From Chlamydiales bacterium (GTDB lineage: Bacteria; Chlamydiota; Chlamydiia; Chlamydiales; Rhabdochlamydiaceae), in assembly GCA_016185065.1 (NCBI GenBank), contig JACPOL010000003.1, positions 113,609-177,608 on the forward strand: a DNA stretch of 64,000 nt, written 5' to 3'. Shown here piece by piece: positions 49,324-55,059 of the stretch. The position numbers and the translations under genes are program-made. Every line of letters begins with the position of its first letter. Within the stretch, counting starts at the first letter, position 1. The notes beneath the pieces were generated by a model, which had not been told where the DNA came from, made no database searches, and worked only from the letters and a program-made list of their open reading frames with translations.

Positions 49324-49629
49324 TTAACGTTCTCCTTTTTCATTCTGAATTTCTGGAACCTGCTCTCCTGTTTCCTTAATAATTTCTAGCGCATTTGTTG
49401 TTTCTAGAGTTGTAATTTCTTTTAGGAATTTCTCTTCCCAATCATTACTAACTGTTTCGAGAGCATTTAGCAGGAATTCTAAACTACCAACCAAAGAACT
49501 TAGATTAATTTGTTTGTTTTCAAAATAACTCAGATGTTCAAGCATCAACATTAACTGACGTTCATCATATTCGCTTATATCTTTCATGTGACTATCCTCT
49601 TCCAGGAATGATAGTGATAACTTGTCCAT
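49324..49629 (-). CDS. Immunity-like small acidic protein (array member 8)
   Basis: 101 aa, helical and acidic, last gene of the co-oriented small-ORF array downstream of the toxin-like gene. Confidence 0.4.
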   Translation of the reverse strand: MDKLSLSFLEEDSHMKDISEYDERQLMLMLEHLSYFENKQINLSSLVGSLEFLLNALETVSNDWEEKFLKEITTLETTNALEIIKETGEQVPEIQNEKGER

Positions 49630-49745
49630 TTTCTCCTATGATTGCCCCAATTTTATTAACAGAATCATAATATTCTAAACCTCCCTCCATCCCGCCGCCA
49701 CTCTGCCGAAGTAGCGCTTCTCATTTCTAGAAACAGTTGTGGTTT

Positions 49746-49973
49746 TTATTTTTTATATTGTTCCAGATAAAGCTCTGCGATTTGGATGTCGCTTCCATCC
49801 TGAAACTCAACTGTGTAGATCCAATCTCCGATATTGCATTGAAATTCTTCACCGTCTTCTTGAGACGAAATTTGATAAAAACCACACACAGATGCAAATT
49901 CTCCACAGTGGGTGCGATCAGGCGCATTGTTAGTAATAACTATCGGATCTCCCCAAGTGAATTTGTTTGCCAT
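49746..49973 (-). CDS. Single SH3/Tudor-like small domain protein (array member 7)
   Basis: 75 aa. NKFTWGDPIVI...GEFASVCG...GDWIYTVEFQDGSDIQIAELYLE. The same domain is present twice in 50550-50999. Confidence 0.5.
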   Translation of the reverse strand: MANKFTWGDPIVITNNAPDRTHCGEFASVCGFYQISSQEDGEEFQCNIGDWIYTVEFQDGSDIQIAELYLEQYKK

Positions 49974-50056
49974 ATTTCTCTCCTGGTTCTTAGCTGGAAA
50001 CTTTCATCAGCACGTGTGAACAAGAATCCGATTCTTTTTGGCCTCAGAAGAATACA

Positions 50057-50536
50057 TCATGACTTACAATTTTCAATCGCTACGTCATATGTATTCGCTA
50101 TTCTTTCAATTAACACCAAGTCTTCTGCGTATATCGCGAAATAAGATGTGTCGAATGCTCTGATCTCTAACAGGACTCCATCACAATCTATAGGACGAAA
50201 TGACGCATCTTCAGTTTCTAGTTCAACACCTTGAATGTTTCGAGATGAAAAGCTGCTATCGACACACAAAAACACTCCCCACATGAATTGTTGAATTTCG
50301 GCACAGTATTCAACAAATTGCGAGTCCGCCCCGATTGGATTTAATTGGCTGTCGTTAAGGTTATATTTCTTTGCGCCTTTCCCAACAGCGTCAACATCCG
50401 CCCCATACCATGTGTGTTGCGGCAAAAAACCCTTAAGAGAATTAATTATCAAAACCAACTGAGTTCCTAAACAAACAACTTTGTCCCCTAAAAAACACTT
50501 GCTCGTAAGTAAAACTCTGTACTTTGGGGTAAACAT
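50057..50536 (-). CDS. Immunity-like protein (DUF2691-like; array member 6)
   Basis: Met23 start (MFTPKYRVLL...). The WYGADVD...FMWGVFL...LEIRAFDTSYFAIYAEDL pattern is recalled from DUF2691-type proteins in Firmicute immunity clusters. Confidence 0.4.
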   Translation of the reverse strand: MFTPKYRVLLTSKCFLGDKVVCLGTQLVLIINSLKGFLPQHTWYGADVDAVGKGAKKYNLNDSQLNPIGADSQFVEYCAEIQQFMWGVFLCVDSSFSSRNIQGVELETEDASFRPIDCDGVLLEIRAFDTSYFAIYAEDLVLIERIANTYDVAIENCKS

Positions 50537-52181: not shown

Positions 52182-52274
52182 GGCAAAAGCTCGCTGTTCA
52201 ATTTTTCGAATTTCTTGGTAAAACTGGATTTACAACAGCAACATATTCATAGAATGTTCTACTGATTTGCTAGG

Positions 52275-52640
52275 TTAGCTGTGAATCTTTCGGTAATTGA
52301 ATGCTATCAACACATCTCTGGCCAAACCTTTTATTTTATTCCACTCTTGCGTGCTTAAGAAATTCTCAGGCATGTCGTGTGTCTCAGAAAACTTCCGAAA
52401 TTCATCATGCAGTTTTAGTAACAATGCATGCTGCATTTCTGTGATCCCGAAATTTTTGTAGTCTTCTAAAATAGGTTCTCCGATATCGAAGAAATCACAA
52501 ACAGCATCATCAAAGGCCTGACATTCTGGACCTTCTCTTAAAATCCATACCCTTTTTTGATAATCGCCATCGAGAAAGTGGGATATATGCCTAAGGTATT
52601 CATCTAATATGTATTTCTTTTCGTCATTGCTTAAGTTCAA
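52275..52640 (-). CDS. Cognate-immunity candidate (array member 1)
   Basis: 121 aa. The TTG start overlaps the toxin-like gene's TGA as TTGA, suggesting translational coupling. Acidic and helical. Confidence 0.45.
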   Translation of the reverse strand: MNLSNDEKKYILDEYLRHISHFLDGDYQKRVWILREGPECQAFDDAVCDFFDIGEPILEDYKNFGITEMQHALLLKLHDEFRKFSETHDMPENFLSTQEWNKIKGLARDVLIAFNYRKIHS

Positions 52641-54775
52641 TCAGCACCTCTGAATATAAATTCGCTGATAGGTATATGTGCCTCAGGAGAATCGTTTAAA
52701 ACCACATTGCCATGTTTATCCAACGATTTCCCATTTACTCTTTGATTCACGTAAGGATTTTGCTGATATGGAAACGGGCTATGAGGTTTTCCTGGCATCA
52801 CTCTCACATATGTATGTGCATTTTTGGGATGTACATATTTCATGCCTGCACCTTTATTAGATACAGTTGCTACATAATTTTCAGGAATTCCTACTGGCTT
52901 TGGAAACGTCGATATACCGGTTTTATGTATCAGTGCTCTAATTTCGTTTTCTGATGTAAATTTTCTTCCATTTGACTCTAAAAAAAGCTCGGCATCTTTA
53001 AATCTCTTGGCCGATTCGCGTGCAGCTGGGTTCTTGGAGATATTAGTAAATGTATCAGCAACAGTTTCTTCCAACCTACCCGCTTGTTTCAAGCCAGCAA
53101 CTTCATGAGGAGCAAATCCTAATTCCTCTGCAAGTGAGATCGTCTTTTGACTCGCTTGGAGCGCTTCTCCAACCTTTGCACCACTCCCTAATTCAGAAAC
53201 CGATTCAAGGACAAGAGTCTGCTCAGCAGTTCGAAGGCCCTTGTAGACTGCGTTTAACTCTTGAGCCCCCTTCACTCCTTTGGCGACAGCCTTTGCCACG
53301 GCTCCAGGGATAACGATATCCGCGCCATGTTTGCCAAAAGCATAACCAGCAAGTTCTCCTCGCTCATCTGAAGGGATCGTATCCCAATCTTTTATAAGCT
53401 GATGAACTTCAGGAGCTAAAGCTTCACTCAAAACACTCCACTGTTCAGTACGTGCAAGGTCACTGAGAACAGTAAGTGCCTCCCACATCTGGCTTCCTGT
53501 TTGAATGGGATGTTTAACCATGTCGGATATAAACAAGAGCAAGTTTTCTCCAGACTCATAAACTCCCTTTGGTAATCCTTTTGCAAAACCTAGACTAAAT
53601 TCAGAAACTGACAGAGGGATGTTTTTTTGAGCTTGAGCGGTGTACTCATGATAGTCCTGAAGCGAATTGTCATATTGCCCCAATCTGAAATGCGCAACTC
53701 CCCTTTCTAGATATGGAAGAGGATTTGATGGATCGAGCTCAATTGCCTTACCGAAATCGAAAACGGCCTGATTCAAATGTCCAGACGCGAGGGCCCTTTC
53801 TCCTCGAAGTTGATACGAGAGAGTATTGAAATCATGTTCTCTATGAGGATCTGAATACAGAGAGGCATAGTCTGTTGAGAACTTTCGATCGATTTCTAAG
53901 TGTCCGAGCCCTCCTTCAAATTGGGGATGGTTGATAGGCTGCTTTGAGAGGTTTTTAAAACTCTCATGTGCAAAGAGAGAACCCAACACCCTTCCACTTT
54001 CTCCTAACGAGGACTCTGTGCTTTGAGACGACTCAAGAAACTGTTCTTTGGCAATTCCCTCTTTGAAAGACGAGATCTGCTCCCCTACAGCCGTTGGAAG
54101 ATCAGATGAAAGATTGGCAGAAGATATTGACGCTCCCTCGTTCCCCTCTTTGGATTTATCTTTTTTCTGCCCGTCAGATGCAGCGCTTCCCGCAGCTGCT
54201 GCCCCAGCTGCCGAAGCTGCAGCAACAGCACCCACAACTACTGCCGCAGCAACGACAACTGCAGCTCCAATGATCAGAGCTTTTTTATGCTTTTTGGCAA
54301 ACTTCTTGATCTGTTTCCATTTTTTGTGGGCCCAGCTCCTGCATAGAACAACTTCCCCCGGACCATAATAGATGGCAGGCATGGAGATAAAATCACTCCC
54401 TTCATCCAGTAAAAAAAGCGAGTATTCATAAGAGTTATCATTGCCATACAAGAGCTCTTGAATATCTATGTCTAGAGCAATCTTTTCTGCTGTTTCATTC
54501 GGCAAGATCCCTTGTCTTGCTAAGTTAGCTAAAAAATTGGCAATGCGTTCTAACTCTCTCTCATTGTATCTTTTTTCCAGCTCTCCACTCTCCAAATCCT
54601 CAAATAGCTTCAGAATTCCGTCATACGTCGGTGAAGATCCTCTCTGCAGAGACTCTTGATCTTGAGATGCGCACGTCTGAACATTTGCAACCGAACCGCT
54701 AGGTCCTGAATACAAAGCAATAGAGGGTATTGTTAAGAGAAAAGCGGAGTTTACGAGAAGTCTGGAATAACGCAT
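52637..54775 (-). CDS. Large secreted/membrane TPR protein with a toxin-like C-terminal module (polymorphic-toxin candidate)
   Basis: 712 aa from the ATG at 54775 (GGAG 10 nt upstream; the alternative at 54871 gives 744 aa). Signal-like MRYSRLLVNSAFLLTIPSIALYSG. Ala/Val TM helix (ALIIGAAVVVAAAVVVGAVAAASAAGAAAAG). TPR unit (NQAVFDFGKAIELDPSNPLPYLERGVAHFRLGQYDNSLQDY). C-terminal module ...GAGMKYVHPKNAHTYVRVMPGKPHSPFPYQQNPYVNQRVNGKSLDKHGNVVLNDSPEAHIPISEF. Confidence 0.5.
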   Translation of the reverse strand: MRYSRLLVNSAFLLTIPSIALYSGPSGSVANVQTCASQDQESLQRGSSPTYDGILKLFEDLESGELEKRYNERELERIANFLANLARQGILPNETAEKIALDIDIQELLYGNDNSYEYSLFLLDEGSDFISMPAIYYGPGEVVLCRSWAHKKWKQIKKFAKKHKKALIIGAAVVVAAAVVVGAVAAASAAGAAAAGSAASDGQKKDKSKEGNEGASISSANLSSDLPTAVGEQISSFKEGIAKEQFLESSQSTESSLGESGRVLGSLFAHESFKNLSKQPINHPQFEGGLGHLEIDRKFSTDYASLYSDPHREHDFNTLSYQLRGERALASGHLNQAVFDFGKAIELDPSNPLPYLERGVAHFRLGQYDNSLQDYHEYTAQAQKNIPLSVSEFSLGFAKGLPKGVYESGENLLLFISDMVKHPIQTGSQMWEALTVLSDLARTEQWSVLSEALAPEVHQLIKDWDTIPSDERGELAGYAFGKHGADIVIPGAVAKAVAKGVKGAQELNAVYKGLRTAEQTLVLESVSELGSGAKVGEALQASQKTISLAEELGFAPHEVAGLKQAGRLEETVADTFTNISKNPAARESAKRFKDAELFLESNGRKFTSENEIRALIHKTGISTFPKPVGIPENYVATVSNKGAGMKYVHPKNAHTYVRVMPGKPHSPFPYQQNPYVNQRVNGKSLDKHGNVVLNDSPEAHIPISEFIFRGAD

Positions 54776-55059
54776 TGATGATTTCTCCACTAAAACATTC
54801 CGATCTGTCCTTTTTCCCTCTTCATCTGAAAAGAGACCTCCTCTTAAAAACCATGCCAGCCTTTTTTGCAATCGCTTTTTTACCTGCTCCCGCAGCAGTA
54901 GTACAAAAAACAGCTCTGCCCCGCAAAATAAAAACTCCTAAATCTATCCTCATCCACTCTTGTAAGCTCAAGAAAGTTGAACTCAAGAAAAGCATAAAAA
55001 GATGAGAACGGGTACTCTGTTGCTTCGATTTTCACCGTTCACTTTAGAAGGTAATTTTT

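Follow-up and report, generated by a model that had tools for sequence, protein, structure and literature searches.

Can bacteria that live only inside host cells fight one another with toxins? The question is raised by a locus of a Chlamydiales bacterium (Rhabdochlamydiaceae; NCBI GenBank assembly GCA_016185065.1), within a stretch of 64,000 nucleotides (nt) of contig JACPOL010000003.1 (positions 113,609 to 177,608 of the forward strand), hereafter the window, to which the coordinates below refer. Listing of its open reading frames (ORFs) gave nine of them, g1 to g9, all on the minus strand within 49324-54871. An earlier interpretation made from the letters alone (the sequence-only reading) had taken these co-oriented genes in AT-rich DNA for a toxin with its cognate immunity gene and an orphan-immunity array, and the ORF listing confirmed their number, orientation and coordinates. 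Comparison with relatives backed the functional part as well: the C-terminal tip of the large protein is swapped, the immunity gene behind it covaries with the tip, and tip-immunity pairs occur as orphan cassettes, the three comparative criteria for polymorphic toxins in the sense of Zhang et al. (2012, PMC3482391). We hold with good confidence that the locus is a polymorphic toxin-immunity system with a lineage-specific trunk. The genes and elements on which the argument turns are the following.

52637-54871, minus strand: g1, predicted polymorphic toxin gene, 744 amino acids (aa) as the full ORF; its 712-aa form occupies 52637..54775
53024..53137, minus strand: junction zone (residues 579-616 of the 744-aa ORF), where paralogues with other tips cease to be similar
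52961..53119, minus strand: helical linker LGF..E...LKQAGKLE... (family alignment, tails)
52640..52960, minus strand: tip A, basic C-terminal module of 107 aa, a probable toxin with a predicted PT7-like fold (AlphaFold2, Foldseek, profiles)
52275-52640, minus strand: g2, 121 aa, TTG start, putative cognate immunity gene of tip A (immA family)
52159..52242, minus strand: 3' end of a DUF4258-like tip D, surviving as a frameshifted remnant and read in three frames against protein P0056
51921-52181, minus strand: g3, 86 aa, putative orphan immunity gene of tip D (immD family)

The large protein is a member of a family in which a constant trunk ends in exchangeable tips. A search with g1 residues 88-588 as the query retrieved at least 315 proteins of 600-770 aa, and every source name given was chlamydial. 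About 580 N-terminal residues are conserved in this family, and the C-terminal tip is exchanged among at least nine unrelated types. In a BLAST comparison of g1 with the best 120 of the at least 315 relatives, 59 aligned through the toxin tip (tip A), 57 stopped aligning at query residues 565-632 and continued into unrelated tails of 29-136 aa, and 4 were truncated; the unrelated tails clustered as tip B (28), tip C (21), tip D (7) and tip E (1). Consistent with this, the multiple alignment showed a trunk well conserved to '...AKIAEVV' and divergent beyond, and a 638-aa paralogue in locus L004 was 41% identical over residues 93-591 and unrelated after. Five further tip types (F, G, H, I and J) were found in the genome loci, and two or three types occur within single genomes. 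Comparison of related genomes for swapping of the C-terminal module, which the sequence-only reading had named as a check, thus turned up a constant trunk with at least nine tip types. The junction zone at 53024..53137 is likely, judging from the alignments, to be a recombination boundary; it is also retained in orphan cassettes (described below). The helical linker is common to tips A, C, D and H and absent ahead of tip B. Base composition changes along the locus, with a G+C content of 48% in the backbone, 45% in the trunk and 38% in both the tip and the g2-g9 array; the two G+C counts made by hand in the earlier reading were exact (19/60 at 51241-51300 and 33/60 at 47341-47400), and its recO call was borne out by gene 47007-47609, which encodes RecO (RecO_N, E 7.7e-15). 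Homologous recombination within the conserved pre-toxin region would bring about the exchange of tips.

The distribution of the family was examined in a genome scan with one genome per species, in which 80 of the 124 encoding places were kept. Record titles name chlamydial taxa for 57 of the 80 (Rhabdochlamydiaceae, Parachlamydiales, Simkaniaceae, Neptunochlamydia or Sacchlamyda), 10 are labelled Verrucomicrobia(e), and one is a 1.6-kb contig from a Saccharibacteria bin. Some classifications place the Chlamydiia within the Verrucomicrobia phylum. Overall, the lineages that are stated for the family point to environmental Chlamydiota. Pfam gave no usable match for tips B, C, E, F, H, I and J or for the families immB and immC introduced below. 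Compared with the DUF4258 / BECR-fold RNase toxins, the intact tip D of P0056 matched below the Pfam cut-off (E 3.3e-4, 21.3 bits against 25), and tip G matched at E 0.01. One relative, P0015 (245 aa), joins the signal peptide and N-terminal domain straight to the linker and tip A, and is a natural deletion variant without the hydrophobic helix and the TPR (tetratricopeptide repeat) region.

The gene that follows the tip changes with it. The first ORF after each tip was taken in all non-redundant loci and then clustered. Results showed that tip A is followed by a g2-like family (~124 aa) in 44 of 46 loci, tip B by a family of its own (immB, ~79 aa) in 9 of 10, tip C by another (immC, ~86 aa) in 11 of 13, and tip D by a g3-like family (immD) in 3 of 3. 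When the six-frame translation of the window was searched with hidden Markov models (HMMs) of these families, the immA HMM found g2 (E 5.6e-57), the immD HMM found g3 (E 3e-41), and neither found anything else. The covariation and the HMM matches therefore identify g2 as the partner of tip A and g3 as the partner of a tip that g1 does not carry. The 121-aa ORF had been placed in the cognate-immunity position because the stop of g1 overlaps its start as TTGA; the overlap is real, and the conserved pairing (44 of 46 loci) agrees with that placement. By these sequence comparisons, g2 is assigned as the cognate immunity gene of tip A, and g3 is assigned to tip D as its immunity gene. With the HMMs of immB and immC nothing was found in the window, and g4-g9 were accordingly rejected as immunity genes of tips B or C.

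A trace of the toxin that g3 would have accompanied is still present. The remnant spans part of the 93-nt spacer between g2 and g3 and the first codons of g3, and its frames read VAVVNP, TKKFEKLNSEL and VKDRAE-stop, to be compared with the end of the intact tip D of P0056, ...VVSVNPTSTKKFEKLNNELSNVKDRAE-stop. Its position is where the intact tip D ends, overlapping immD, in loci L054, L062 and L063; no intact tip D was found within the 64-kb window. As for known families, g2 matched the NCBIfam SCO4402 family (NF047838) at 18 bits, below the curated cut-off of 50, and all 20 immA members tested gave such sub-threshold matches (best E 7e-9). PDB sequence searches with g2, g4, g5, g7 and the immA profile returned chance-level matches only.

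Tips with their immunity genes also occur detached from the trunk. When the 147 C-terminal residues of g1 served as the query, most of the proteins retrieved were short (87-230 aa) and free-standing, and on the orphan tip A contigs a g2 homologue of 120-126 aa (46-52% identity to g2) follows directly after the tip. Free-standing tip A-immA pairs lie in L002, L004 and L007, some of them between housekeeping genes, and the order tip A, immA, immD in L002 is the same as in the window. The longer orphan ORFs keep the last ~100 residues of trunk homology, which fits the need of a recombination substrate. In L057 the trunk is followed by three tip A-immA units. An unusually large immA expansion was observed in Chlamydiales bacterium BSEPT1 (OZ156466.1), with ~20 tandem immA genes after a tip A (L074:9231-15080 and L087:1-2884, the two ends of the chromosome record).

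What, then, is tip A? Tip A, carried by 1194 representative proteins, has no Pfam or NCBIfam model. An AlphaFold2 model built from an alignment of 24 sequences reached a predicted local distance difference test score (pLDDT) of 91.7 and consists of five strands and one helix. Foldseek against the PDB gave a sole significant match, 8OWU (8owu_C; E 6.8e-4, probability 1.00), the next match having E 0.34, with a root-mean-square deviation of 2.9 over 76 columns and a template modelling score of 0.69 normalised to the target; against viral structures there was no match. The sequence profile of tip A searched against the PDB also ranked 8OWU first (E 6.4e-4 over 63 positions). This structure is the D37A mutant of the polymorphic toxin PT7(Bc) in complex with its cognate immunity protein PIM7(Bc). 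The sequence-only reading had suspected in the C-terminal module a toxin tip of a family it could not name, and both fold and profile now match it to a validated toxin. Like PT7, tip A is a small basic C-terminal domain of similar size and predicted fold; it shares the motifs LD..GN.V...SP.AHIP and PE(G/N)(W/Y), it has an immunity gene of ~120 aa directly downstream, and it too occurs as free-standing orphan ORFs. PT7 is a Mg-dependent, non-specific DNase toxic to E. coli and yeast (bioRxiv 10.1101/2021.10.19.465003; bioRxiv 10.64898/2026.07.31.742022), with rRNase activity in later work (bioRxiv 10.64898/2026.07.31.742022); mutation of D37 or H47 abolishes its toxicity, and its fold was described as novel (Nachmias et al.). 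The PT7 fold therefore makes a nuclease the most likely identity of tip A, which we regard as somewhat favoured.

These matches also bear on the simplest dismissal, namely that there is no toxin system here and that g1 encodes a membrane protein with TPR units whose C-terminus is structural or adhesive, next to unrelated small genes. Database annotation would allow it: no toxin or immunity model of Pfam or NCBIfam exceeded its threshold anywhere in the locus, and NCBI lists a protein identical to that of g1 (100%) as 'MAG: tetratricopeptide repeat protein [Chlamydiales bacterium]' and the eight small genes as hypothetical proteins (HYX48_01710-01745, same 211-kb contig). However, the tip has as its sole structural match a validated toxin, solved together with its immunity protein, and tip swapping, covariation and orphan cassettes contradict a chance neighbourhood, so that we give this explanation hardly any credence.

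PT7 itself sits on an LXG protein in Listeria or on a pre-toxin-TG protein in B. mycoides, on plasmids. The plasmid copies are each followed by an immunity gene of 117-128 aa, and free 78-aa ORFs exist too, some of them mis-annotated as 'transposase'. Two Bacillus cereus plasmids (L096:610-846 and L098:610-846) carry such free 78-aa PT7 ORFs, each then followed by a 117-aa gene that has the size of PIM7 and lies in the PIM7 position. In the L096 copy Ala occurs naturally in place of D37, and its 'transposase' annotation explains the molecule name in PDB entry 8OWU. Such free ORFs with PIM7 on Bacillus plasmids, together with tip A ORFs of 87-106 aa that stand alone between housekeeping genes, have a Met of their own and are followed by immA, could suggest that the tip-plus-immunity pairs are selfish addiction cassettes, that is, self-stabilising toxin-antitoxin modules whose fusion to a trunk is incidental. 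Most copies of tip A, however, end a full trunk with a signal peptide, the longer orphan ORFs retain homology to the 3' part of the trunk as recombination substrates would, and an addiction module has no use for orphan immunity genes that lack a toxin. We consider this explanation very improbable.

Behind g2 and g3 the array continues with six more genes.

51489-51899, minus strand: g4, acidic, 133/136 aa, immunity-type by context
51010-51492, minus strand: g5, 160 aa from MKYFTKDW, immunity-type by context, weakly DUF4085-like
50550-50999, minus strand: g6, 149 aa, the g8 module twice in tandem
50057-50536, minus strand: g7, acidic 159-aa product, unclassified, annotated as hypothetical protein MBI2742617.1
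49746-49973, minus strand: g8, 75 aa, the g6 module once
49324-49629, minus strand: g9, acidic helical 101-aa product, unclassified, with a 30-nt direct repeat on either side

Among the eight small genes only g6 and g8 are related to each other, so the eight genes represent seven families, a mixed immunity-type array. All eight products are acidic (isoelectric points 4.1-5.1) and tip A is basic (9.5), the charges being complementary. The short gaps or ATGA overlaps described between the small ORFs proved to be a single ATGA overlap (g4 stop/g5 start), with remaining intergenic gaps of 10-116 nt. Shine-Dalgarno-like motifs lie upstream of g1 (ATG at 54775), g2, g4, g5, g6, g8 and g9, and a promoter and terminator scan gave no signal above shuffled expectation. 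The context of relatives supports an immunity-type role for g4, g5 and g6/g8. A 50% identical homologue of g4 adjoins a g6-like gene in L089, and in L080 the array that follows an RHS-Ntox37 toxin includes a homologue with 36% identity. The g5 relatives come from metagenomes: a 59% homologue is placed directly after an RHS C-terminal toxin in L090, homologues adjoin g6-like genes in L091 and L093, and the homologue in L092 ends an array of DUF7336 genes. Homologues of g6 occur in L089, L091 and L093, and g8 shares 73% identity with the first of the modules in the L091 homologue. Within the window, g6 contains the g8 module as a tandem pair (36-38% identity; E 2.6e-18 and 1.5e-13), and the likeness between g8 and g6 extends to the ribosome-binding region. 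A possible paralogy of g4 and g5 found no support; they share the FHDG motif only.

The family names that had been proposed for these genes fared less well than the arrangement. The single and tandem copies of the module in g8 and g6 stand, but its SH3/Tudor-like label is weak (DUF7141 E 8e-4, Tudor_2 E 0.085). The MKYFTKDW motif, called a DUF4085 hallmark, is indeed present in g5, but the match to PF13315 reaches 19.4 bits against a cut-off of 24.1 and falls on profile positions 90-165 instead of the N-terminus; three members of the g5 family match DUF4085 at E ~1e-3, below the cut-off, and two g5 relatives score 19.4 and 18.2 bits in the same region. No DUF2691-like ORF could be recognised, none of the nine proteins matching PF10903 at E <= 1. 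As to the claim of eight immunity-like genes, g2 and g3 are supported by covariation with tips and g4, g5 and g6/g8 by context, but the assignment of g7 and g9 draws on position, strand and acidity, plus a strong AGGAG motif for g9.

Three of the loci that contain these homologues deserve mention in their own right. L080:12635-15207 (minus strand) belongs to a chlamydial genome and encodes an RHS-repeat toxin of the classical kind, whose tip passes the Pfam cut-off for Ntox37 (PF15535, 28.5 bits); a 196-aa gene comes next, with the g4-like gene further on. L090:60-1359 encodes an RHS C-terminus (DPxGL...YxYxxNNP motif) with an unrecognised tip, ...EKDHLHFKDGSALNSDGTWKHG..., and the g5-like gene directly after, a candidate new toxin-immunity pair. 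L093:150-1169 contains a 75-aa tip-like ORF (...REPHGHVPGVSNSDGTPWLP), directly behind it a g6-like gene, and then a truncated g5-like gene.

Against whom would the toxin be used? Were g1 a host-directed effector that damages amoeba or arthropod nucleic acids, with g2 only protecting the producer before export, then self-protection would leave unexplained why g3 persists beside a degraded toxin, why immA arrays reach ~20 genes, and why tips and immunity genes covary so strictly across at least nine tip types, all of them usual marks of inter-bacterial conflict. The obligately intracellular lifestyle does fit such an effector, as do the TPR units and a neighbouring Sel1-repeat protein, both typical of eukaryote-interacting proteins, the toxicity of PT7 to yeast as well as to bacteria, and the argument of Zhang et al. 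(2012, PMC3482391) that the host is what most toxins from intracellular bacteria are directed at. We judge a host effector unlikely; for the polymorphic toxin-immunity system, we incline only slightly to bacterial rather than host targets.

How the toxin might leave the cell depends on the trunk, in which three elements were located.

54707..54775, minus strand: Sec signal-peptide-type N-terminus MRYSRLLVNSAFLLTIPSIALYS, as read from the sequence, its position conserved in the family alignment
54185..54289, minus strand: lone strongly hydrophobic Ala/Val helix with conserved KKFAKKHKK before it (Kyte-Doolittle)
53627..53815, minus strand: two TPR units (Pfam TPR_2, TPR_11, TPR_1)

The identical NCBI protein has 712 aa and begins with MRYSRLL at the ATG at 54775, not at the TTG at 54871. 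The signal-like N-terminus seen earlier is of the Sec signal type, and g1 may be exported by it. The Ala/Val-rich transmembrane helix that had been described corresponds to a single strongly hydrophobic helix (Kyte-Doolittle mean >1.6 across residues 163-197 of the 712-aa form), and HKK[AED][IL]IIGA ranks among the most conserved motifs in the alignment of the trunk family. Where at least one clear TPR unit had been claimed, two were found, with Pfam models above their cut-offs (TPR_2 E 5.9e-8, 32.7 bits against 27, residues 353-415; TPR_11 E 1.3e-7; TPR_1 E 3.6e-7). Pfam and NCBIfam see only TPR in the trunk and none of the domains that define Rhs, CdiA, LXG or MafB proteins (RHS repeats, haemagglutinin repeats, LXG, DUF1020); Pfam likewise detected no RHS/YD repeats, filamentous haemagglutinin repeats, PAAR/VgrG or two-partner secretion partner, and neither database recognised a trafficking domain in g1.

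Several observations weigh against the reading as a whole or against its parts. With regard to the tip, hhalign with PT7 of Bacillus and Listeria gave a probability of 96% (E 4.8e-9), covering only the last 27 residues (NGK.LD..GN.V...SP.AHIP). In the HMM alignment the PT7 toxicity residues D37 and H47 face M55 and Y/Q of tip A, an equivalence that is uncertain because this stretch has a 4-residue length difference and is left unaligned by hhalign. A homology between g2 and PIM7 was rejected, since the immA HMM scores PIM7 at 0.9 bits and phmmer with PIM7 found nothing among g2-g9. With regard to the trunk, its structural model is poor (pLDDT 60.7), and a fold search with it had no match at E <= 0.001, returning only weakly matching TPR proteins. 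No export or delivery machinery is linked to the toxin gene, whose neighbour genes are not conserved across loci, and on the simplest reading a cleaved signal followed by a stop-transfer helix would mean that the toxin end stays in the producer's own cytoplasm. By the positive-inside rule, the helix behind KKFAKKHKK (in the N-terminal third of g1, 54185-54775) is suggested to take the opposite orientation. Finally, family matches above threshold are missing for seven of the eight small genes, and g7 and g9 have no relatives or family matches in Pfam, NCBIfam, the loci or viral contigs.

These points limit what tip A can be called. Besides the toxicity residues, which are unmatched at the aligned positions, it differs from PT7 in having ~25 extra N-terminal residues and an invariant set of its own (R53, K58, H60, S61, Q66, Y70, D81, N85 and H95). 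Because the aligned D37/H47 positions, the invariant residues and g2 all differ from PT7 and PIM7, we do not call tip A a PT7 member; as modelled, it is a distant relative with the PT7 fold.

Taken together, the system may be pictured as follows. The trunk, mostly helical, would consist of a Sec-type signal, an N-terminal domain, the hydrophobic helix, the TPR units and the pre-toxin helical region, and would carry an exchangeable C-terminal toxin, in this case tip A. The product of g2, a gene translationally coupled to g1, most likely protects the producer and its kin by binding tip A and blocking it, a neutralisation that we infer from sequence. The toxin of g3 (tip D) appears to have decayed to a frameshifted stub with its immunity gene kept, and g4-g9 would continue a mixed acidic immunity-type array, three families of which recur in such arrays elsewhere, two of them behind RHS-type toxins. 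The tips are probably swapped together with AT-rich tip-plus-immunity cassettes at the conserved pre-toxin region, cassettes that are also free-standing in related genomes, and the most likely use of the spare immunity genes is protection from the toxins of rival chlamydiae that share the host. A bolder version, possible rather than probable in our estimate, is that environmental Chlamydiota possess a widespread delivery platform of their own, a Sec-exported, membrane-anchored TPR trunk without kinship to Rhs, CdiA, LXG or MafB that is used for warfare between chlamydiae in a shared host cell or inclusion, and that tip A is a nuclease of the PT7 fold whose active site has been remodelled and whose immunity partner has a new fold.

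The surroundings of the locus were also inspected. Divergent from the toxin gene, 55060-57849 (plus strand) encodes a 929-aa Sel1-repeat protein (Sel1 E 2.8e-56), a gene that is not conserved beside trunk genes elsewhere. Past it lies a second low-G+C block (57964-63592, 37%) with a 681-aa EamA transporter-FkbM methyltransferase fusion, a 399-aa protein whose HcgC-like match is weak, and two ORFs that no Pfam model matched. On the other side, a G+C-rich direct repeat of 30 nt (28/30 identical; 49158-49187 and 49674-49703) flanks g9, and its left copy (49158-49187) is the 3' end of the plus-strand ORF 48887-49198. This suggests that g9 joined the distal end of the array through an event that duplicated the junction. 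The tRNA genes (tRNA-Arg and tRNA-Leu) were not convincing as an island boundary, lying 1.5-2.4 kb off with a DUF155 gene between.

Polymorphic toxin systems are taken as signs of direct bacterial competition, and the present locus suggests that even obligate intracellular bacteria fight one another with toxins. If the bolder version is true, the immunity arrays, of up to ~20 genes in one genome, record an arms race among obligate intracellular bacteria. Antagonism between chlamydiae that share a host cell becomes a testable question. The PT7 toxin fold, reported only from Firmicutes and Proteobacteria (bioRxiv 10.1101/2021.10.19.465003), would reach a third phylum, where its immunity partner is another one. 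The remaining tip types, of which there are at least eight, and the seven families of small proteins become candidate new toxin and immunity domains, and a trunk without a recognisable secretion module raises the question of its export route.

How does the system compare with those already known? The MafB/MafI toxins of Neisseria have a Sec signal peptide, a conserved N-terminal region, a variable C-terminal toxin and an immunity gene directly downstream, and their loci contain orphan toxin-tip and immunity cassettes with no dedicated secretion system alongside. By analogy, the architecture of the chlamydial trunk most resembles this type. It differs in having no sequence relationship to MafB (Pfam sees only TPR), in its hydrophobic helix and TPR units, and in belonging to an obligate intracellular bacterium. 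With Rhs and CdiA systems it shares the exchange of tips at a conserved boundary, orphan cassettes that retain a piece of the conserved region, toxin stubs before kept immunity genes, mixed immunity arrays after the toxin, and relatives of g4 and g5 behind RHS toxins; unlike there, the neighbour genes of the chlamydial trunk are not conserved. By predicted tip fold, PT7 is the closest likeness. Among chlamydiae, a URI-nuclease toxin of Simkania with an adjacent immunity gene was interpreted as inter-bacterial conflict, 'relatively rare' among endosymbionts (Zhang et al. 2012, PMC3482391). It is likewise a chlamydial toxin with an adjoining immunity gene, but has another fold, and no trunk family, orphan cassettes or immunity arrays were described for it. 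The same survey lists toxin and immunity domains in chlamydiae and states that intracellular bacteria, not competing with conspecifics, mostly lack immunity genes (PMC3482391), in agreement with the remark of the sequence-only reading that such a system would be unexpected in an intracellular lineage. Within the library that was searched, no paper on this chlamydial family turned up. The logic of the system is known; what would be new is the lineage-specific trunk and a tip with a predicted PT7 fold that is paired with a new immunity family.

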